Positions 1,939-29,136 of a stretch of DNA of 35,277 bases are shown here, one piece after another. Source of the stretch: Methanomassiliicoccales archaeon (GTDB lineage: Archaea; Thermoplasmatota; Thermoplasmata; Methanomassiliicoccales; UBA472); NCBI GenBank assembly GCA_050015815.1, contig JBEKAR010000001.1, forward strand, positions 1-35,277, in the 5' to 3' direction. Below the pieces are notes generated by a model, which saw only the letters and a program-made list of their open reading frames with translations, was not told the DNA's origin and did no database searches. The translations under genes and the position numbers were made by a program. Every line of letters begins with the position of its first letter. The stretch's first letter is position 1.

Positions 1939-2262
1939 ATGGGAAGATACAAGATCGGAGTTCGGTCCGACTTCCAGCCAGGGAAGTTATATGGCATCGA
2001 GGTGCAGGGGAAGAACGTCATGGTGGTGAACCTAGAAGGACAGATCTACGCCATCGATGGCATCTGCGGCCATCATGGAGGACATCTCTGGGATGGAAAG
2101 CTCGAAGGCGGAAAGGTGAAGTGCCCGAGCCACGGCTTCGAGTACGACGTCCGAACGGGCAAGCTGGTCGGCGGGCACACCAGGCTGTTCGGGAAGGCCC
2201 GAGACGTCGAGGCTTACCCGATCATCTTTGAAGGGGACGACGTACTGGTCGAACTGCCTTGA
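1939..2262 (+). CDS. stand-alone Rieske [2Fe-2S] ferredoxin-like protein, copy 1
   Basis: 107 aa. Rieske ligand boxes C-x-H (ICGHHGG) and C-x-x-H (CPSHG) at the canonical spacing. Confidence 0.85.
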   Translation: MGRYKIGVRSDFQPGKLYGIEVQGKNVMVVNLEGQIYAIDGICGHHGGHLWDGKLEGGKVKCPSHGFEYDVRTGKLVGGHTRLFGKARDVEAYPIIFEGDDVLVELP

Positions 2263-2331
2263 GCGAAGCGTAATGGCTCTTCGGGGCAGGTATGAAATAG
2301 CCATCGCTCGAACAATGGGTCGAGTGAAAAA

Positions 2332-2655
2332 ATGACCAAGGCGAAGATCGGAAGGCAGACGGACTTCCCACCGGGCAAGCTGTGCGGGATAGACGTGAAT
2401 GGGAAGATGGTTTTGGTGGTGACCGTCGACGGCAAGCTGTGCGCGGTCGACGGCATATGCACTCACATGGGTGGTCATCTCTGGGAGGGCAAGCTGATCG
2501 GCAACGTTGTCAAGTGTCCTCGCCATGGATCGGAATTCGACCTCCGCACTGGCAAGGTCATGAAGGGCCCATGGGTCCCATTCGGCAAGGCTCACGATCT
2601 GAATTCGTATCAAGTAGGGATCGAAGGCGATGACGTCGTCATAGAGATGCCCTGA
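2332..2655 (+). CDS. stand-alone Rieske [2Fe-2S] ferredoxin-like protein, copy 2 (tandem paralogue)
   Basis: 107 aa. Boxes ICTHMGG and CPRHG. 60 of 107 positions are identical to copy 1 in my ungapped hand alignment. Confidence 0.85.
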   Translation: MTKAKIGRQTDFPPGKLCGIDVNGKMVLVVTVDGKLCAVDGICTHMGGHLWEGKLIGNVVKCPRHGSEFDLRTGKVMKGPWVPFGKAHDLNSYQVGIEGDDVVIEMP

Positions 2656-2786
2656 ACCAAGTCCCATATCTGGGCCGATGTACTGAATGTGGTTCGGACC
2701 GGACATTGTCTCATCGCACCGGAGATTCCTCTCCGAGCGAGCTAGAGGCGAGACGGCCGCTCAAGGAAGTCGATAGAAAGATAGAG

Positions 2787-2859
2787 TGGACCGGGCGAGA
2801 TTTGAACTCGCGGCCTCTACCATGCCAAGATAGCGATCTTCCAGCTGATCTACCGGCCC
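2787..2859 (-). tRNA. tRNA-Ala (anticodon GGC)
   Basis: Minus-strand GGGCCGGTAGATCAGCTGGAAGATCGCTATCTTGGCATGGTAGAGGCCGCGAGTTCAAATCTCGCCCGGTCCA folds as a cloverleaf. It has a 7-bp acceptor stem with the G3:U70 alanine identity pair, anticodon stem CTATC/GGTAG, loop TTGGCAT, and T arm GCGAG-TTCAAAT-CTCGC. CCA is not encoded. Confidence 0.9.
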
Positions 2860-2894: not shown

Positions 2895-3089
2895 TTTGGG
2901 ATAGCCAACATCCTGTCCACGACCGCCGCAAGCAGCGCTTTGTCCTCGATGAAATCGGATGCCTGCTTCGCATGGAACAGTCAGAGAGACTGCGGCAGCT
3001 ATTTCAGATCGTTGGAAGAAGCGGGGAGAGAACCGGTCTGCGGCCTCTGCCTGTATGTCTTTCCTTACGGACGAAAGGCATCCGAGAGG

Positions 3090-4490
3090 CTACACGTCCA
3101 GCTTCTTCTGGAACCGCGTCCTCTCACCAGGAACGTTCGACGGGTACTCGCCGGTGAGACAGGCCATGCAAAGGTCGCACTCCGCCAACCCGAGCGCCCT
3201 GACCAGGCCCTGGACCGATGTGTAGGCGACGCTGTCGGCGGTGATGAGCCTGGCGATCTCCTCGACGCTGCGGTTCGTCGCGGCGAACTGCTCCCGCGTC
3301 TTCATGTCGATGCCGTAGTAACATGGAGCTCGTACCGGCGGGCAGCCGATGCGCACATGCACTTCCTTCGCCCCGGCCCTCCGGGTCATCTGCACGATGC
3401 GTCTCATGGTGGTGCCGCGGACGATCGAGTCGTCGACGATGACGACCTTCCTTCCCCGGATCGTGGAACGGATCGGATTGAGCTTGAGCATGACGCCTTC
3501 GTCCCTGGCGTTCTGCTCCGGCATGATGAACGTCCTCTCCACATATCGGTTCTTCATGAACCCCTCCTCATAGGGGATGCCGGAGACTTCGGCGTAGCCC
3601 AGAGCGTGGGCCCTTCCCGAATCAGGGACCGGAACGACGACGTCCGCCTCGCATGGATGCTCCTCGGCGAGGATCTGCCCCAGCCTTTTCCTCGACGTGT
3701 AGACCTCGAGGCCGTCGATGAGGGAGTCGGGGCGGGCGAAGTAGACCCATTCGAACATGCAATGCGCCTTGTGCGGCATCGCCGGGACGCTGTGGGACTG
3801 GAACCCCTCAGGCGTGATCTCGACTATCTCCCCCGGGACGACGTCGCGGATGAACTCGCCCTGCAGGACGTCGAAGACTGCGCTCTCGGAGGCGATCCCG
3901 TAACCGTCGTGAAGCCGTCCGATGCAAAGGGGCCGGAACCCGAGAGGGTCGCGCACCCCGAACACCCGGCCGTTGAACATGACGGTCAGCGAGTACGCGC
4001 CGTCGATAATCTTCATCGTGTTCTTGATAGCCCGGATCGGGTCGGGGTTCTGGCTCAGCTCGTTCGCCATCAGCCGGACGATTATCTCCGAGTCGGTGGT
4101 GGTGAGGAAGGCCCATCCTTCCGTCTGGAGCTTCGCCCTGAGCTTGTCGGCGTTGACTATGTCGCCGTTGTGAGCGAGGGCGACCTCGCCCTGCAGGGTC
4201 GTGACGACTATCGGGGCGCTGTTCTCCTGGGACGAACTTCCGGTGGTGGAATAGCGGACATGGCCGATGCCGCACTCCCCTCTGAGGTGAGCTACCGCCT
4301 GGGGCGCCAGGACCTCATGAACCAGCCCCATGCCCTTGACGGAGCGGATCTTGCCGTCGAAGATGGCGATGCCAGCGGACTCTTGGCCCCGGTGCTGGAT
4401 GACACGCAGCGCCTTCTTCAGGACCGGCACCGCGTTCGTGGTCAAGGCCATGCCGGCCACCCCGCAGAAGTGCTTGGGCTTGTCGGTCAA
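3090..4490 (-). CDS. purF: amidophosphoribosyltransferase (glutamine-PRPP amidotransferase)
   Basis: Ntn nucleophile context F-CGVAGM, PRPP loop VVIVDDSIVRGTT, and a Cys-rich C-terminal part (CPPVRAPCYYG, CDLCMAC) consistent with the Fe-S class of PurF. No Met directly precedes the catalytic Cys, so a short propeptide is implied. I start at in-frame TTG 4490 (MTDKPKHF|C) just behind GGGGAGG. The track maximum is TTG 4526, which would overlap L37e. Stop is TAG. Confidence 0.9.
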   Translation of the reverse strand: MTDKPKHFCGVAGMALTTNAVPVLKKALRVIQHRGQESAGIAIFDGKIRSVKGMGLVHEVLAPQAVAHLRGECGIGHVRYSTTGSSSQENSAPIVVTTLQGEVALAHNGDIVNADKLRAKLQTEGWAFLTTTDSEIIVRLMANELSQNPDPIRAIKNTMKIIDGAYSLTVMFNGRVFGVRDPLGFRPLCIGRLHDGYGIASESAVFDVLQGEFIRDVVPGEIVEITPEGFQSHSVPAMPHKAHCMFEWVYFARPDSLIDGLEVYTSRKRLGQILAEEHPCEADVVVPVPDSGRAHALGYAEVSGIPYEEGFMKNRYVERTFIMPEQNARDEGVMLKLNPIRSTIRGRKVVIVDDSIVRGTTMRRIVQMTRRAGAKEVHVRIGCPPVRAPCYYGIDMKTREQFAATNRSVEEIARLITADSVAYTSVQGLVRALGLAECDLCMACLTGEYPSNVPGERTRFQKKLDV

Positions 4491-4507
4491 GGCCTCCCCT
4501 CTAGAAT

Positions 4508-4675
4508 TCAATGAGTCTTGGCCCAATTATAGGATCTCCGCTTGGCCGACGCTCCATACCCGCAGGACGCGCAGACGCCCTTCCTGATGTTGTAAGCGTG
4601 CTTTCCGCATCGGCGGCAAGGGACGTGAACCTTCTTGCTGCCCATCTTTCCCATTGCGGGGGTGCCCTTTCCCAT
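4508..4675 (-). CDS. rpl37e: 50S ribosomal protein L37e
   Basis: Not in the ORF track (55 aa). Minus strand from ATG 4675 reads MGKGTPAMGKMGSKKVHVPCRRCGKHAYNIRKGVCASCGYGASAKRRSYNWAKTH, stop TGA at 4508..4510. It has the C-x-x-C...C-x-x-C zinc ribbon and GKGT N-terminus of L37e. AGGAG lies 9 nt upstream, overlapping the LSm stop. Confidence 0.85.
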   Translation of the reverse strand: MGKGTPAMGKMGSKKVHVPCRRCGKHAYNIRKGVCASCGYGASAKRRSYNWAKTH

Positions 4676-10343: not shown

Positions 10344-10449
10344 TGCCGGGGACGGGGTTCGAACCCGTGACCTTCGGATCTCCCTGGATGGGGTCTGGTC
10401 GACGAAATCCCTATGAGTCCGACGCTCCACCAGGCTGAGCCACCCCGGC
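10344..10449 (-). tRNA. tRNA-Met (anticodon CAU; elongator type, Ile2 not excluded) with a 32-nt intron at 37/38
   Basis: Exon 1 is 10449..10412 (GCCGGGGTGGCTCAGCCTGGTGGAGCGTCGGACTCATA). The intron is 10411..10380 (GGGATTTCGTCGACCAGACCCCATCCAGGGAG). Exon 2 is 10379..10344 (ATCCGAAGGTCACGGGTTCGAACCCCGTCCCCGGCA). Acceptor stem GCCGGGG/CCCCGGC, anticodon stem TCGGA/TCCGA, T arm ACGGG-TTCGAAC-CCCGT. The splice sites fit a slightly relaxed bulge-helix-bulge: bulges TA|G and AG|A, inner helix GGAT/ATCC. Confidence 0.85.
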
Positions 10450-11852: not shown

Positions 11853-12704
11853 TCAGAGCTTGAACTTGACCTCGTGCGCGTCGAGACCGAGCGACTCCTT
11901 CGGGAGCCCGAAGGCCATGCCGTACAGCTGCGAGAGGTGGATGATCGGTATGTCGTAGCCGGGCAGGTCCTTCTGCGACCGGTCGTACTGAAGGTGGCAG
12001 AACGGACAAACGTCCAGGATCATCTGGCCGTTGACCTTCTTCACGTTCTTCAGCTTCTCCTCGGTCATCTTGAGGGCGATCGCGGAGTCGCGGGATCGGA
12101 CTCCACCACCGGCGCCGCAGCACATGATCTTGTCCTTGTAGTTGATGCTCTTCGCTCCTGTCACCTCGACCAGCTCGTCGAGGATGCGCGGCCTCTCCGG
12201 GTCGTCCAGGTTCTTGATCCTCGAGGGCTTGATGAAGTGGCAGCCGTAGTGCACCGCCACGTTATAGCTCAGGGGGTTCTTGACCTGGGCCTTGATCCTC
12301 TCAACCCCGACATCCTTGTACAGGACCTCGGCGAAGTGCCTGACCTTGGTCGTGCCGTTGTACTTCAGGCCGACCTTGGCGAGCACCTCGTTGACCTCCT
12401 TGAGCTTCTCCGGGTGGTGGGCGAGGACGTAGTTGACCTCGAACATCGAGCCGTAGCAGCCGTTGCAGATGGTCATGACGTCGACACCTTTCTTCTCCGC
12501 CAGGGCGAGGTTTCTCGCACCCAAGGCGAGCCAGGTCGTCTGGTCGAAGGAGCGGATGACTCCGGGGGCGGGGCAGCAACCGGCGCCCTCAAGCTCGACG
12601 AGCTCGACGTTGAGCGCCTTGAAGACCTCGCGCGTCGCCTTCTCGATGCCTGGGTACCTGTACGGAGCGACACAGCCCAAGAACAACGCGAACTTAGCCA
12701 TCAC
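11853..12704 (-). CDS. hdrB: heterodisulfide reductase subunit B
   Basis: 283 aa with two CCG-type cysteine motifs (GAGCCPAPG..., IMCCGAGGG) and LGCVAPYRYPG at the N-terminus. Its start overlaps the hdrC stop (ATGA). Confidence 0.9.
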   Translation of the reverse strand: MMAKFALFLGCVAPYRYPGIEKATREVFKALNVELVELEGAGCCPAPGVIRSFDQTTWLALGARNLALAEKKGVDVMTICNGCYGSMFEVNYVLAHHPEKLKEVNEVLAKVGLKYNGTTKVRHFAEVLYKDVGVERIKAQVKNPLSYNVAVHYGCHFIKPSRIKNLDDPERPRILDELVEVTGAKSINYKDKIMCCGAGGGVRSRDSAIALKMTEEKLKNVKKVNGQMILDVCPFCHLQYDRSQKDLPGYDIPIIHLSQLYGMAFGLPKESLGLDAHEVKFKL

Positions 12705-13222
12705 TTCTTCCCTCCCTTCATCAGTTTGTCGAAGCCAGTGATCTCCATCACCTTGCGGAAGTCCTCCATTGCCTTCGTGTCGGAGACGGTGGTCGGCGGC
12801 TCGGCCGGGAGACCCATGCTCGCTCTGAGCTTCTTCATGTCATCCCCGAACGGGACTGTGGAACCGATCTTCATCATGTTCTCACCGATCTTCTTATGCG
12901 CCTCGGACATGTAGCCCTCGCGCACGGCGAAGTTCCGCAGGATGAATATGATGTCAGGAATCTCGACCATGCGCGGGCAGCGCTCGACGCAGGTGTAGCA
13001 TGTGGTGCACAGCCACAGCTCCTCCGTCGGAAGGATCTCGTCCTTCAGGCCCAGCTGGGCCCGCCTGATCGTCTGGCGAATCCTGAACGCCGTCAGCCTG
13101 CCGGAGGGGCAGGAACCCGTGCAGGTCCCGCACAAGTAGCAGGCCATCAAGGTCTCGCCGCCAGGCCCTCCGTTCTCGACCTTCTTCGTGAACTCTGGAT
13201 TGGGCTCTACGACCTTTGCCAT
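12701..13222 (-). CDS. hdrC: heterodisulfide reductase subunit C
   Basis: 173 aa with two [4Fe-4S] ferredoxin motifs, CYLCGTCTGSCP and CTTCYTCVERCP. AGGTG lies 8 nt upstream of the ATG. Confidence 0.9.
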   Translation of the reverse strand: MAKVVEPNPEFTKKVENGGPGGETLMACYLCGTCTGSCPSGRLTAFRIRQTIRRAQLGLKDEILPTEELWLCTTCYTCVERCPRMVEIPDIIFILRNFAVREGYMSEAHKKIGENMMKIGSTVPFGDDMKKLRASMGLPAEPPTTVSDTKAMEDFRKVMEITGFDKLMKGGKK

Positions 13223-17672: not shown

Positions 17673-17679
17673 TTTAATA
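17673..17679 (+). promoter_or_regulatory. TATA box of the GTPase-V4R/DUF835 operon
   Basis: AACCGTTTAATAGAGC context. ATG 17686 is only 7 nt downstream of the box. ATG 17704 is about 28 nt from its centre (leaderless spacing). Confidence 0.45.
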
Positions 17680-17703
17680 GAGCGCATGGGGATACTCGCG
17701 GGA

Positions 17704-18213
17704 ATGGAGCGCAAGCGCTACATACGCAAGGTCTGCCTCCTCGGGGACGGAGGGGTCGGGAAGACAAGCCTGGTGCGACGCTATGTCGACGACGTGTTCA
17801 ATGACAAGTACATCGTCTCCTTCGGCACGAAGGTCTCCAAGAAGGTCATGAACGTCGATGACGTTGAGTTGACCCTGATGATCTGGGACGTCCTGGGACA
17901 GAGCAGTGAAGACTCGCTGCACGCCGCATACTACCGCGGCTCGAACGGGGCGATGCTCGTCGGCGACCTGACCCGGCCGGAGACATTGGAACACCTGCAG
18001 AAATGGCGCGACGACCTGCTTGCGGTGGAGAGAGGGGCGAAGACCGTAATCGTCGGCAACAAGGCGGACCTGGAGATGGGCATCACGCCGTCCTCTCTCG
18101 CCTCGCTGTCGAAGCAGCTCGGCTCCGACGTCTACCGCACCAGCGCCAAGACCGGAGACGGTGTGGAGAGGACGTTCGAGCAGCTCGGCAAGATACTCCT
18201 GGGTGGTGTCTGA
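17704..18213 (+). CDS. Ras-superfamily (Rab/Ras-like) small GTPase
   Basis: G1 GDGGVGKT, switch-I FGTKV, G3 WDVLGQ, G4 NKAD, G5 TSAK. No lipidation box at the C-terminus. The track start is ATG 17686; I prefer ATG 17704 (MERKRYIRKV...) because of the TATA position. Confidence 0.85.
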   Translation: MERKRYIRKVCLLGDGGVGKTSLVRRYVDDVFNDKYIVSFGTKVSKKVMNVDDVELTLMIWDVLGQSSEDSLHAAYYRGSNGAMLVGDLTRPETLEHLQKWRDDLLAVERGAKTVIVGNKADLEMGITPSSLASLSKQLGSDVYRTSAKTGDGVERTFEQLGKILLGGV

Positions 18214-19158
18214 ATGGCACGCTACAATCCGTTCTTCGTCATGCCGGGGTCGGCCTTGCTCGACCTCAGGGAAGAGCTTGAGCTTATCGAGGACAAGGGA
18301 GCGGGAGAGACGCTGGAAAGGTATGGATATCGCGCTGGCGTCGGCCTGATCGGGGTGCTCGACGTGTCGGCGGAGAACGAGGATGATCTCAGGCAGATGC
18401 TGCCCCAGATCTGGTCCGAGACCGGCCTAGGAAGGATGAAGATCAAGAAAGCCTCCCGAGGAGAGATCGAGGTGGAGATCGAGGAGAGCATCGAAGCGTT
18501 CCACGGACGCAAGTGCGACTTCACTCGTGGTTATCTTGCCGGCATAGTGTCGTCCCTGCTAGACACGCGCTACACCGCAGCGGAGAAGGAGTGCATCTCA
18601 GACGGCAAGGACGCTTGCGTCCACGTGCTCCTCCCGGCGGAGGATAGGGTGGAGGAAACGGTCGCGGAAAAGATCGAGAAGCCCGAGGCGGAAGGTCTCG
18701 AGCCCGGCAACTCCTACCTCATCGAGTCGGAGGACCAGTATGCTGGCTTCGATGTTTTCACTGACCTGGTCTCGAAGGGCGCGAGGTGCATGAGCATCGT
18801 CCGGGAGTATCCAGATAAGCTCAGGAAGAAGTTCGACCTCGGCGCTTCGCCGTGCCTCTGGCTTTCATATGAACGGGACGTAAAGTACGCGAGGGAGCCG
18901 ACGAACGTCCCGCTGATCTACTCCGAGGTGAAGAGCTTCCTCGACGGGGAGGAAGGGAGCGTCGTGCTCATCTCCGGGCTCGAGTATCTCGTGAGCCAGA
19001 ACACGTTCCTCAAGGTGCTCAAGTTCCTCCAGTTGCTCAACGAGAACGTCGCGGTGAAGGACGCGATGCTCCTTCTGCCGCTCAGCACGCAGGCGCTCAA
19101 CCCCCGCGAGGTCAAGATCCTCGAGAGGGAGATGCGGGTCTACAAGCCCACGCAGTGA
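18214..19158 (+). CDS. V4R-domain (Bet3-like fold) + DUF835-like two-domain protein
   Basis: Its ATG directly follows the GTPase stop (TGAATG). The N-terminal domain ends with CDFTRGYLAGIVSSLL...AEKECISDGKDACVHVL, the C..F..G...G ... E.C...G...C signature of V4R. The C-terminal half (GNSYLIES...ARCMSIVREYPDKLRKKF...CLWLS...VVLISGLEYLVSQNTFLKVLKFLQLL) matches my recollection of DUF835. Confidence 0.75.
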   Translation: MARYNPFFVMPGSALLDLREELELIEDKGAGETLERYGYRAGVGLIGVLDVSAENEDDLRQMLPQIWSETGLGRMKIKKASRGEIEVEIEESIEAFHGRKCDFTRGYLAGIVSSLLDTRYTAAEKECISDGKDACVHVLLPAEDRVEETVAEKIEKPEAEGLEPGNSYLIESEDQYAGFDVFTDLVSKGARCMSIVREYPDKLRKKFDLGASPCLWLSYERDVKYAREPTNVPLIYSEVKSFLDGEEGSVVLISGLEYLVSQNTFLKVLKFLQLLNENVAVKDAMLLLPLSTQALNPREVKILEREMRVYKPTQ

Positions 19159-19210: not shown

Positions 19211-19681
19211 ATGAACATAGTGCCCAAGAAGTTCTTCATCACCTCGGGCTGCGCCGTAAGCAAGGTGTCCGACCTGAACGCCTTCGACGAGGCCCTGAAG
19301 AAGGCCCGAATCGGCGAACAGAACCTCGTCTCGGTCTCGTCGGTCCTGCCGATCGGGGCCAAGCAGGTCCCGGTCAGGGAGATGCCGATGGGCGGCGTGA
19401 CCTTCTGCGTCCTGGCCCAGATGAGGGGCGGGGAGGGTGAGATGATCTCGGCCGGCATCTGCTACGCCTTCAGAAAGGACGGCAAGGGCGGCTACGTGGC
19501 GGAAGGGCACATGCACGGCACGAAGAAGGCCCTGAAGGAAGTCCTCGAGTGGAAGATGACCGAGATGTCCAAGCTCAGGGGGATCGAGCTGAGGACGATC
19601 CACTACATGGTCGAGGAGCTGTCCATTCCCATGGATCATTACGGCGCTTGCGTCGGCTCCTGCGTCTTCGTCGAGTTCTGA
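19211..19681 (+). CDS. pdaD: pyruvoyl-dependent arginine decarboxylase
   Basis: 156 aa. VPKKFFITSG N-terminus and the NLVSVSSVLP self-cleavage site context typical of PdaD. Confidence 0.9.
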   Translation: MNIVPKKFFITSGCAVSKVSDLNAFDEALKKARIGEQNLVSVSSVLPIGAKQVPVREMPMGGVTFCVLAQMRGGEGEMISAGICYAFRKDGKGGYVAEGHMHGTKKALKEVLEWKMTEMSKLRGIELRTIHYMVEELSIPMDHYGACVGSCVFVEF

Positions 19682-20121
19682 TGTTCGGAGTCGTCGTCTG
19701 CCCTAAGTGCAAGAAGGCGAGAGGTGTCGTTCTAGGTTCAGCGAGGGCCAGGTGCCCCCGCTGCGGTCACTCCATTGACCTTTCCAAGGCGAGAGTTTTC
19801 TACAAGACGGATTCACAAGCCGAGCTGGCCGAAGCTGTGAAGAAGATGATGGACCGCCTGAACGAGGGCATCGAGGAGATCGACGTCGAGAGGAAGAGAC
19901 GCCGACCCTTCGAGAAGAAGGAGGTGCGGACCCGGCGCACCGAGGACTCGCTGCTTGCCGCGGTGAGGGAGCTGAGCGAGAGGCTTGGGACGTTCGGGCC
20001 AGAAGATTTCGCCAAGAGCATCGAGACCAAAGACGTCGAGGAGGCCTCGAAGCTGATCGACAACATGCTCGCCCAAGGCCTTCTTCTCGAGCCTAGGCCG
20101 GGGCGCTATCGGTCCGCGTGA
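19681..20121 (+). CDS. zinc-ribbon + probable winged-helix protein (conserved archaeal hypothetical)
   Basis: ATG 19681 shares its A with the pdaD stop (TGATG). It is codon 45 of track ORF 19549..20121, whose upstream part lies inside pdaD. N-terminus CPKC...(14 aa)...CPRC. The C-terminus (LLAAVRELSE...AQGLLLEPRPGRYR) looks wHTH-like. Confidence 0.65.
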   Translation: MFGVVVCPKCKKARGVVLGSARARCPRCGHSIDLSKARVFYKTDSQAELAEAVKKMMDRLNEGIEEIDVERKRRRPFEKKEVRTRRTEDSLLAAVRELSERLGTFGPEDFAKSIETKDVEEASKLIDNMLAQGLLLEPRPGRYRSA

Positions 20122-27741: not shown

Positions 27742-28258
27742 CCTCGAGGATGCTCATGTGCAGAGCATCCTTCCAACCGCCTTTGTGGAAGTGGTCGTGC
27801 CTCGCTCTGCCTTCCAAGCTGAAGCCGCATTTCCTGTAATACGATATCGCGCGCTCGTTGTAGGCCGCGACACGTAGCCAGACGCGGTGAAGGTTCCTCA
27901 CTGTGAAGGCCTGATCGAGCATTATCTTGATCGACTCGGTGCCGAGGCCTTTGTTCCAGTGCTTCGGCTCACCAATCACGACCCTGAGCTCGGCCGAGGA
28001 AGAGCGTCGGTCCATCGCGGCCAGACCGATGATGCCGATCGGCTCCCTCTGCTCCAGTTCGTGGACGATGAACCATACCGCCTCGTCGTCGTTTACCATA
28101 TGCTGAGTGACCGCGGCCTCCTCTTCCAGCGAGACCGCGAAGTACAGGTGCTCCGCCCCGAGGTCCTCGAGCACTCTCTGGTCGTTGAACCATTTGTGCA
28201 GGAGCCAGGCATCCACCGCTTCCAAAGGCCTCAGCCCGACCGACTTGCCCTCGAGCAT
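27707..28258 (-). CDS. GNAT N-acetyltransferase, RimJ/RimL-like, copy 2
   Basis: 183 aa. LRPLEAVDAWLLHKWFNDQRV and VVIGEPKHWNKGLGTESI. A tandem paralogue of copy 1. Confidence 0.85.
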   Translation of the reverse strand: MLEGKSVGLRPLEAVDAWLLHKWFNDQRVLEDLGAEHLYFAVSLEEEAAVTQHMVNDDEAVWFIVHELEQREPIGIIGLAAMDRRSSSAELRVVIGEPKHWNKGLGTESIKIMLDQAFTVRNLHRVWLRVAAYNERAISYYRKCGFSLEGRARHDHFHKGGWKDALHMSILEDEFRGLADARK

Positions 28259-28334
28259 CGTGCGTCAATATGGCCGACCAATAATAAGCGTTCCCGCGAG
28301 CGGGGCCGTGTCCACGACCAGACAAGTGTCCCGG

Positions 28335-28347
28335 AAAGGATTATGAA
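28335..28347 (+). promoter_or_regulatory. BRE/TATA-like box of adk
   Basis: AAAGGATTATGAA, centre about 29 nt upstream of ATG 28371. Confidence 0.35.
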
Positions 28348-28370
28348 CGGGAAGGCTGTTAGGCCGTGGC

Positions 28371-29003
28371 ATGGACCGGACTATCGTGATCATGGGCCCA
28401 CCTGGCTCGGGCAAGGGAACGCAGACGGAGAGGCTCTGCGCCGAGTTCAAGCTGACCAAGATCTCAACCGGGGACCTTCTGCGCGAGGCGGTCAAGCAAG
28501 GCACCCCGCTTGGTGTCAAGGCGAAGTCGTTCATGGACGCGGGCAAGCTTGTCCCGAACGACCTGGTCATCGCCCTCATCAAGGAGAAGCTGAAGACGCT
28601 CGAGGGCGGCGTCATACTGGACGGTTTCCCGCGCAACCTGGAGCAGGCCCAGATGCTCGAGAAGATCGCCAAGGTCGACCTCGCGATCGATCTGCAGGTG
28701 AACGAGGAGAACCTAGTCAAGAGGCTAACGATCCGCAGGACGTGCAAGAACTGCGCTGCGGTCTATCATCTGGAGTACAATCCTCCGAACGTCGCGGGCA
28801 GGTGCGACAAGTGCGGTGGCGAGCTCTACCAGCGCTCAGATGACACGGAAAAGACGGTGCGCGAGAGGCTCAAGGTCTACAGGAACCAGACCCTTCCGCT
28901 CGTGGCGTTCTACAAGGAGAAGGGCGTCCTCGAGGAAGTCGACGGCGAAGGTGGGATCCCGGCAGTGCACGACCGCCTTGCGAAGATCATCAAGGCGAAG
29001 TGA
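28371..29003 (+). CDS. adk: adenylate kinase, long bacterial-type with zinc-binding lid
   Basis: P-loop GPPGSGKGTQ, NMP-binding region, and lid with CKNC...(17 aa)...CDKC. Confidence 0.9.
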   Translation: MDRTIVIMGPPGSGKGTQTERLCAEFKLTKISTGDLLREAVKQGTPLGVKAKSFMDAGKLVPNDLVIALIKEKLKTLEGGVILDGFPRNLEQAQMLEKIAKVDLAIDLQVNEENLVKRLTIRRTCKNCAAVYHLEYNPPNVAGRCDKCGGELYQRSDDTEKTVRERLKVYRNQTLPLVAFYKEKGVLEEVDGEGGIPAVHDRLAKIIKAK

Positions 29004-29060: not shown

Positions 29061-29136
29061 AGCCCCGTAGTGTAGCGGTCAATCATGCGGGACTCTGGAT
29101 CCTGCGACGGCAGTTCGAATCTGCCCGGGGCTACCA
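29061..29136 (+). tRNA. tRNA-Gln (anticodon CUG), 3' CCA encoded
   Basis: AGCCCCGTAGTGTAGCGGTCAATCATGCGGGACTCTGGATCCTGCGACGGCAGTTCGAATCTGCCCGGGGCTACCA. A1:U72 acceptor stem AGCCCCG/CGGGGCT, anticodon stem CGGGA/TCCTG with loop CTCTGGA, T arm GGCAG-TTCGAAT-CTGCC. Followed by CCCTTTTCG. Confidence 0.9.

Follow-up and report, generated by a model that had tools for sequence, protein, structure and literature searches.

Prokaryotic Ras-like GTPases have precedents for operon-encoded partners. In a survey of these proteins, 404 of 488 MglA genes were coupled to MglB; this coupling was seen for MglA only, with no coupled member among the Rup GTPases, the Ras/Rab-like group (PMC4316618). According to the same survey, archaeal Rup genes have no neighbours that are conserved, and neither a member of the Rup group nor an interaction within a Rup system had been characterised; it reported no V4R or DUF835 neighbour and did not mention V4R or KaiC (PMC4316618). 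A second precedent is the ArvA-ArvB-ArvC system of Haloferax volcanii, a documented operon of Euryarchaeota in which an Arf/Sar1-like small GTPase with an N-terminal amphipathic helix and a demonstrated membrane and vesicle role is encoded beside partners, SepF-like (ArvB) and with a Zn-ribbon, that are kept next to it in most genomes and are proposed to act as its guanine nucleotide exchange factor (GEF) and GTPase-activating protein (GAP) (PMC10927574). Single Rab-like proteins have also been recorded in a Thermoplasmatales archaeon and in Aciduliprofundum, without context analysis, and attempts in the literature to assign archaeal Rab-like proteins a phylogenetic position did not succeed (PMC4915359). 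Here, we describe a gene pair in a stretch of 35,277 nucleotides (nt) from a Methanomassiliicoccales archaeon (assembly GCA_050015815.1, contig JBEKAR010000001.1; henceforth termed the window), in which an open reading frame for a Ras/Rab-like small GTPase (ORF A) directly abuts one for a protein with an N-terminal V4R and a C-terminal DUF835 domain (ORF B). The two genes form a genuine, conserved and co-expressed module found across Thermoplasmatota. A small GTPase with an operon-encoded cognate partner is a known arrangement, whereas the architecture of this partner, a V4R sensor joined to an inactivated KaiC domain (iKaiC), looks previously undescribed.

The locus shares with MglA-MglB a single-domain Ras superfamily GTPase that stands beside a co-expressed, dedicated and non-enzymatic partner. 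It differs in that the GTPase has a DxxGQ motif with Asp, as in Rup and eukaryotic proteins, and in that the partner combines V4R with a KaiC-like domain in place of Roadblock. The likeness to ArvA-ArvB-ArvC likewise ends at an archaeal small GTPase with conserved operon partners: the GTPase subfamily and the partners differ, and no membrane anchor is visible in the GTPase studied here. For ORF B, the nearest described proteins are the phenol sensors MopR, PoxR and DmpR and the V4R part of MsvR, a redox-responsive regulator, in all of which the output is AAA+/HTH or DNA-binding; in the present case it would be an inactivated KaiC domain and a separate GTPase. ORF B also resembles REC-DUF835 and PAS-DUF835 proteins in carrying DUF835 C-terminal to a sensor or receiver domain (PMC5847659), although its input domain is V4R and its subfamily is tied to a Ras-like GTPase. 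Finally, TRAPP and the Asgard TRAPPC3 proteins share the V4R/Bet3 fold and GxxxG motifs with ORF B, and the GTPase encoded by ORF A is Rab-like; the similarity is at the level of fold only (about 15% identity), with no longin subunits here and a metal site of bacterial-sensor type in ORF B. The paper that first joined V4R and Bet3 does not mention GTPases (PMC2253512). An Asgard study, in the portion accessible to us, proposes ligand binding for TRAPPC3/V4R and reports longin-TRAPPC3 and Roadblock/longin-GTPase fusions, that portion describing no GTPase-V4R fusion or operon (PMC10933270). The literature within reach, to which the 2017 article of Makarova, Galperin and Koonin on KaiC hubs (mBio) did not belong, held no earlier account of a GTPase-V4R-DUF835 pairing, and the literature covered held no experimentally characterised partner of a Rup GTPase.

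ORFs A and B occupy the forward (+) strand of the window, as do all their features given below, and share a reading frame in which a stop codon is their sole separation. ORF A is open from 17686 to 18213 (175 amino acids, aa). The first-pass annotation of this DNA had let the GTPase begin at 17686, yet its true start is most likely Met7 at 17704, which leaves a protein of 169 aa (17704-18213): the NCBI record annotates a 'Rab family GTPase' of 169 aa, ME(K/R) is the usual opening of orthologues, and this ATG is preceded at a distance of 31 nt by a TATA-like box, TTTAATAG (17673-17680). ORF B follows at 18214-19158 and encodes 314 aa. At the junction (18211-18216), the stop codon and the next start codon form TGAATG with a 0-nt spacer, just as first read, which implies that GTPase and V4R-DUF835 protein are translationally coupled. 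When 103 distinct upstream regions of orthologues were compared, about 95 had a similar TATA-like box, placed 29-38 nt 5' of the GTPase ATG. These boxes imply a dedicated promoter with a very short leader, and we infer that the box is the promoter of the two-gene unit.

Conservation was judged on loci that had been gathered by similarity to ORF B; their taxonomic labels are those of record titles and cluster names only. In 111 loci, the V4R-DUF835 gene is complete and the sequence reaches 560 nt or more beyond its 5' end; the GTPase stands immediately 5' of it in 110 of them, and the sole exception, L017, has a disrupted GTPase. In Methanomassiliicoccales-type genomes, represented by 56 species-level loci, it is always directly upstream. 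Here, the surroundings are conserved as well: the Methanomassiliicoccaceae share a 9-kb block with genes for HycI, M16, GTPase, V4R-DUF835, PvlArgDC, DUF5817, a membrane protein and a PAPS-reductase-like protein. Because this entire block is syntenic, adjacency within the Methanomassiliicoccales-type clade does not count as independent evidence. Three metagenome-assembled genomes (MAGs) of the 'MFD' series depart from the usual picture, with a GTPase that is interrupted in L017 and L056 and 38% identical, fragmented matches to ORF B in L053 and L056; assembly indel errors and gene decay are both possible.

Three further lines of evidence do not share this dependence on synteny. The first is the junction itself, which is tight but built differently from locus to locus: the orthologous loci comprise 20 with ATGA, six with TGATG and 11 with a gap of 0-2 nt, and most of the remainder use GTG or TTG starts within a few nt. 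The second is genomic context. Beside the Methanomassiliicoccales arrangement (type I), with M16 and HycI 5' and PvlArgDC 3' of the pair, there is a type II context in which M16, HycI and PvlArgDC are all missing and the GTPase still abuts the V4R-DUF835 gene. It emerged from a metagenome scan with a DUF835-only query, which added 80 loci that were annotated with local hidden Markov models (HMMs). Type II versions of ORF B are 42-48% identical to that of the window and belong to clusters labelled 'Thermoplasmata archaeon', 'Candidatus Thermoplasmatota archaeon' and 'Euryarchaeota archaeon RBG_13_61_15'; in one type II MAG, the members of the GTPase cluster and of the ORF B cluster bear consecutive accessions. 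More distant contexts were sampled from 50%-identity clusters that are 35-44% identical to ORF B, a small set of about 9 clusters; a word-indexed search with an alignment of distant V4R-DUF835 clusters yielded 8 proteins only. Among these clusters, a Ras gene precedes V4R-DUF835 and a stand-alone V4R gene between unrelated flanks at P0246, overlaps the V4R-DUF835 start between unrelated flanks at P0244, and follows V4R-DUF835 in inverted order at P0249, while the contig of P0313 is too short for GTPase adjacency to be judged. One distant lineage (L126, L127, L146, L147) has an extra stand-alone V4R gene of about 174 aa directly after V4R-DUF835, in the order Ras > V4R-DUF835 > V4R.

The third line is natural gene fusion. 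P0348 is a single Ras-V4R-DUF835 polypeptide whose domain order equals the gene order of the window, and P0353 and P0323 are Ras-DUF835 fusions that lack V4R; the fusions all have DUF835 C-terminal to the GTPase. P0348 itself has 527 aa (L143, 8001-9584; assembly GCA_030595765.1), and its neighbours are genes for a UbiA prenyltransferase, an MFS transporter and a protein of more than 2,800 aa. The pair is identified as a genuine module by its tight or overlapping junctions, its own promoter box, its recurrence in at least five genomic contexts, one of them inverted, and the three fusions, and the adjacency noticed in the first pass is not peculiar to this genome. Taken together, the varied tight junctions, the type II context, the 110/111 adjacency, the distant contexts and the fusions make it very likely that GTPase and V4R-DUF835 protein are functional partners, and their partnership is probably physical.

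The GTPase half of the module is clear-cut. ORF A scores 119.3 bits against Pfam Ras (E 1.6e-34; cut-off 21.6) and 90.3 bits against Roc, compared with only 40.7 bits against Arf, and an NCBIfam scan returns the generic small_GTP model TIGR00231 alone (59.6 bits). It is a single domain of 169-175 aa, below the 240-aa limit, and its nearest solved structures are Rab21, Ypt7/Rab7, Sec4 and Rab1 (E 4e-29 to 1e-23), with a Thorarchaeota Rab also among the matches. Conservation of its motifs was counted over 105 orthologous pairs of GTPase and ORF B. The G1/P-loop GDGGVGKT (residues 20-27 of the 175-aa frame; 17743-17766) keeps G20, V24, G25, K26 and T/S27 in 105/105 each; so does G3, DVLGQ (17887-17901), with D, L, G and Q, including Asp68 and the catalytic Gln72, and G4, NKAD (18058-18069), with N, K and D. 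In G5, SAK (18142-18150), S and A are found in 105/105 and K or R in 99/105. These four boxes had all been recognised from the sequence at the outset. The fifth, FGTKV, had been listed with them, but its Thr is replaced by Ala in 38 of the 105 orthologues and is thus not the Mg-binding residue. The equivalent of Ras Thr35 is Ser45 (17818-17820), which is Ser in 58/105 and Thr in 47/105 and aligns with the switch-I Thr of Rab21.

By these sequence features, ORF A reads as a canonical Ras superfamily small GTPase of the Rup/eukaryote-like branch. Membership of the MglA family was considered and rejected on the invariant G3 Asp68 and on the lack of a Roadblock gene in the window and related loci, following the published criterion (PMC4316618). 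Its best PDB matches are Rabs, and a RabF4-like YYRG motif is present; its C-terminus, ...GKILLGGV, has neither a Cys nor a tail, in contrast to the Cys prenylation motif and hypervariable tail of the Rab family proper. Only about 8 residues precede strand 1, and they form no N-terminal amphipathic helix. With intact catalytic motifs, no C-terminal Cys or tail and no such helix, ORF A looks like a soluble, catalytically competent switch, and not like a prenylated Rab or a membrane binder of the Arf/ArvA type.

ORF B homologues are annotated as 'DUF835 domain-containing protein' or 'predicted hydrocarbon binding protein', and both domain assignments of the first reading are upheld by HMM comparison, as is that of Ras: DUF835 matches with 93.9 bits (cut-off 33.1, residues 178-307) and V4R with a marginal 32.2 bits (cut-off 31, residues 89-139). 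With AlphaFold2, modelling from 17 sequences gave a mean predicted local distance difference test score (pLDDT) of 79.5, and in a 54-sequence model most 10-residue blocks within V4R and DUF835 were at pLDDT of at least 90. In both models, the two domains are separated by an acidic linker of variable sequence (residues ~142-162; 18637-18699) with pLDDT below 50, which is predicted to be disordered.

The N-terminal domain (residues ~12-141; 18247-18636) has the V4R (4-vinyl-reductase/Bet3-superfamily) fold, a helical layer with a 4-stranded sheet. NCBIfam places the N-terminal half closest to the V4R part of MsvR, as a weak match. In a Foldseek search of the PDB, this domain matches best the phenol-sensor domains of PoxR, MopR and DmpR (E 2e-7 to 1e-5); next come MJ1460, a V4R protein of archaea, and YslB, followed by Bet3/TRAPPC3, including Thorarchaeota TRAPPC3 (E 1e-5 to 1e-4, ~15% identity); the TM scores against Bet3/TRAPPC3 chains, normalised to target length, are 0.54-0.71, as for the Bet3 family fold. 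When a profile was made of ORF B homologues, residues 5-151 could be aligned to the entire MopR sensor domain. In this alignment, Cys101 (18514-18516), Glu124 (18583-18585), Cys127 (18592-18594) and Cys135 (18616-18618) fall on C, E, C and C of MopR, the Zn ligands of that protein. All four are kept in at least 104 of the 105 pairs and outline a putative Zn site (18514-18618). As a metal site, Cys101-Glu124-Cys127-Cys135 is a better description than the cysteine signature from which V4R had first been recognised; His137, which that signature implied as a ligand, is present in 66/105 pairs only. Also invariant among the homologues are two GxxxG pairs, G38/G42 and G106/G110, a motif described for Bet3/V4R (PMC2253512). 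Overall, the domain is nearest to the MopR/PoxR phenol sensors and resembles Bet3 at fold level only.

The C-terminal domain (residues ~163-310; 18700-19143) had been proposed to serve in output or oligomerisation. By Foldseek, it matches FlaH/ArlH (4yds), Elp4/5/6 (Elp456) and KaiC, which reveals a RecA/KaiC-like fold, and no Walker A motif GxxxxGK[ST] is found within residues 160-314. Galperin and colleagues count DUF835, as an inactivated KaiC (iKaiC), among the output domains found in response regulators of archaea (PMC5847659), and the domain is more than an oligomerisation unit. Its invariant residues among the 105 pairs are R197, P200, W216, L217, P229, G255, E257 and Y258. An exhaustive HMMER search returned 2,261 representative proteins (E <= 0.001). 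In 130 DUF835 representatives, the N-terminal partners are V4R in 16 (best E-value 1.5e-13), seven-transmembrane (7TM) domains in 14, PAS in ~10, GAF in 8, REC in 4 and Ras/Roc in 3, a census that agrees with a signalling output domain.

With these components, the reading that we prefer, at a probability of roughly 0.6, is a dedicated two-protein signalling module of Thermoplasmatota in which a sensor-adaptor acts together with a GTPase switch. A promoter belonging to the pair would drive its transcription, and coupled translation would yield the two proteins at a ratio of roughly 1:1. ORF B would be the cytoplasmic sensor-adaptor, whose V4R domain may perceive a small hydrophobic ligand or a redox/thiol signal through its Cys-Glu-Cys-Cys metal site, and whose DUF835 domain, having lost the nucleotide-binding loop, would serve as the part for protein-protein interaction and output. 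ORF A, as a Rab/Ras-like switch with catalytic competence, would bind ORF B, and the latter would most likely set the nucleotide state of the GTPase with GAP-like and/or GEF-like activity, by analogy to MglB and MglA, so that V4R input would yield a GTP- or GDP-bound GTPase, which in turn would act on downstream targets. Direct binding, the contacting domain, the way in which the signal runs, the kind of ligand and the output are all inferred parts of this scheme.

Several observations weigh against the scheme. V4R-DUF835 genes occur without a close GTPase: P0242 has no Ras gene within 6 kb and has a KaiC-like ATPase gene adjacent with two more nearby, and at P0245/P0392 the nearest Ras gene of the same subfamily is ~5 kb off and a KaiC-like ATPase gene is adjacent. 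The existence of such lineages means that members of the protein family do not always require the GTPase as a partner. Neither of the two non-V4R DUF835 genes examined has a Ras neighbour, and one of them is next to a convergent gene for a KaiC-like ATPase. Which domain of ORF B would contact the GTPase is thus indicated in two directions, with the V4R-less fusions pointing to DUF835 and the Ras-less non-V4R DUF835 genes pointing the other way. Arg197 might have been read as an arginine finger, but it is found in all DUF835 proteins, GTPase-linked or not, and so is not specific evidence for one. Lastly, an AlphaFold2 model of GTPase and ORF B as one chain, mimicking P0348 and computed from the window fusion, the 3 natural fusions, 40 ORF B homologues and 10 GTPase homologues, showed all domains well folded (mean pLDDT 89.2) but had a predicted TM score (pTM) of 0.47 and no confident interface. 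As the alignment was unpaired and the model a monomer model, we regard this result as weak and count it as uninformative and not as negative.

The same GTPase-less genes are the starting point of a possible, if doubtful, alternative in which signal flow is reversed, with the GTPase as upstream switch and V4R-DUF835 as its effector. The GTP-bound GTPase would bind the iKaiC domain and gate its contact with KaiC-like ATPase 'hub' proteins or other targets. On this view, the NTPase activity missing from DUF835 would be provided in trans by the GTPase, possibly in place of the KaiC-like ATPases that adjoin the GTPase-less relatives. In favour of such an order, GTPase-less V4R-DUF835 genes and one other DUF835 gene adjoin genes of the KaiC-like family PF06745 (L057/L061, L144/L145, L153), a further DUF835 gene precedes an archaellum cluster with a KaiC-like ArlH-type gene, the domain structurally resembles FlaH/ArlH and KaiC, and in the fusions the GTPase comes first. 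The neighbours in PF06745 hint that inactivated KaiC domains may pair with an NTPase supplied in trans. On the other hand, a KaiC-like ATPase was sought among the window proteins and none was found, and none was noted in the GTPase-linked loci P0246, P0249 and P0244; moreover, a sensor domain within ORF B fits better with ORF B as the input side. The two directions are inseparable by sequence alone. As to the loci themselves, the DUF835 and PF06745 genes at L057/L061, L144/L145 and L153/L154 are convergent or divergent, and P0261 (L151/L152), a DUF835 gene without V4R, lies ~2.5 kb upstream of its archaellum cluster (archaellins, FlaC/D/E, KaiC-like ArlH). L057 also holds a toxin-antitoxin-like HEPN / nucleotidyltransferase pair (3084-3711, -) near the distant V4R-DUF835 gene, flanked by the KaiC-like ATPase gene and a gene for a 1,032-aa CARDB protein.

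A different mechanism was suggested by the first-pass annotation, which likened the pair to Rab and TRAPP. Here, the V4R/Bet3-like domain would itself be the GEF of the Rab-like GTPase and thus a prokaryotic forerunner, or else an analogue, of TRAPP in its action on Ypt1/Rab1. The comparison draws on the Foldseek placement of the N-domain in the V4R/Bet3 superfamily, Thorarchaeota TRAPPC3 included, on the invariance of both GxxxG pairs typical of Bet3/V4R, on Rabs as the best solved relatives of the GTPase, and on the fact that, among the DUF835 genes examined, a Ras neighbour is seen only beside those that contain V4R. In TRAPP, however, it is chiefly Bet5 and Trs23, both longin subunits, that make up the Ypt1-binding surface, and Bet3 only adds its C-terminus. 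Neither longin, Sybindin, Sedlin nor Roadblock genes are present among the annotated neighbours in the window or at the P0246, P0249 and P0244 loci, and longin-type (Bet5/Trs23-like) and Roadblock genes are absent from every neighbourhood examined. In addition, the N-domain is closer to MopR/PoxR/DmpR ligand sensors and keeps the pattern of their metal site, P0353 and P0323 dispense with V4R, the fused AlphaFold2 model shows no confident packing of V4R on the GTPase, and the organisms are Thermoplasmatota and not Asgard archaea. We regard the analogy as speculative and very unlikely. That the V4R domain or the whole V4R-iKaiC protein acts as a direct GEF or GAP of a Rab-like GTPase in non-Asgard archaea, whatever the relation to TRAPP, is also unlikely, if marginally less so.

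It is less probable still that the two genes are merely co-expressed through inherited gene order or a shared promoter and act in unrelated processes. Synteny of the 9-kb block within Methanomassiliicoccaceae and the lack of an AlphaFold2 interface would be compatible with this, but the pair stays intact when every flanking gene changes and when its order is inverted, the overlapping stop and start are kept despite differing sequences, and fusion into a single polypeptide has occurred three times independently. An ArvA-type vesiculating GTPase, with ORF B and the protein of the DUF5817 Zn-ribbon gene that lies one or two genes 3' of the pair in types I and II as ArvB/ArvC-like partners, has a negligible probability and was rejected, given that the GTPase scores far higher with Ras (119 bits) than with Arf (40.7 bits), has Rabs as nearest relatives and lacks the amphipathic helix of ArvA, that ORF B is a V4R-DUF835 protein and not SepF-like as ArvB is (PMC10927574), and that the independent contexts P0246, P0249 and P0244 have no DUF5817. 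Membership of a known anti-phage defence system was also rejected, as neither protein matches any PADLOC model at E <= 0.01.

Elsewhere in the window, a pyruvoyl-dependent arginine decarboxylase gene (PvlArgDC; 19211-19681, +) and the DUF5817 Zn-ribbon gene, which starts at 19681, overlap by stop and start (region 19211-20121) and form a second tight pair, which in loci of type I comes after the GTPase module; in those of type II, DUF5817 appears to come straight after V4R-DUF835, with PvlArgDC missing. An Rfam tRNA match of 106 nt and 57.7 bits at 10344-10449 (-), just 3' of the ribosomal protein S3Ae gene and undetected by ARAGORN, is probably an intron-containing archaeal tRNA. Ordinary tRNAs are Ala(GGC) at 2786-2859 (-) and Gln(CTG) at 29061-29136 (+). 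Four ORFs of 224-524 aa, at 2032-2706 (-), 2940-4514 (+), 11874-12914 (+) and 27887-28843 (+), have no Pfam match at E <= 1e-4; with the sequence at 60% G+C, some of them may not be genes.

The module provides a specific and testable partner for a Rup GTPase. Studies of co-evolution and structure can draw on over 100 orthologous pairs, 63 of them less than 88% identical. The module also ties V4R sensors and inactivated KaiC domains, both poorly understood in archaea, to a GTPase switch. If the partner regulates the nucleotide cycle, it would represent a new GAP or GEF architecture and would bear on the origin of the partnership between Bet3-fold proteins and Rabs. If it is an effector, GTPase switching would be linked to the proposed KaiC-based signalling hubs of archaea. 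Should V4R-iKaiC prove to regulate the GTPase directly, the pair would be a prokaryotic precedent for combining a Bet3 fold with a Rab-type switch, and iKaiC would constitute a new class of GTPase regulator.

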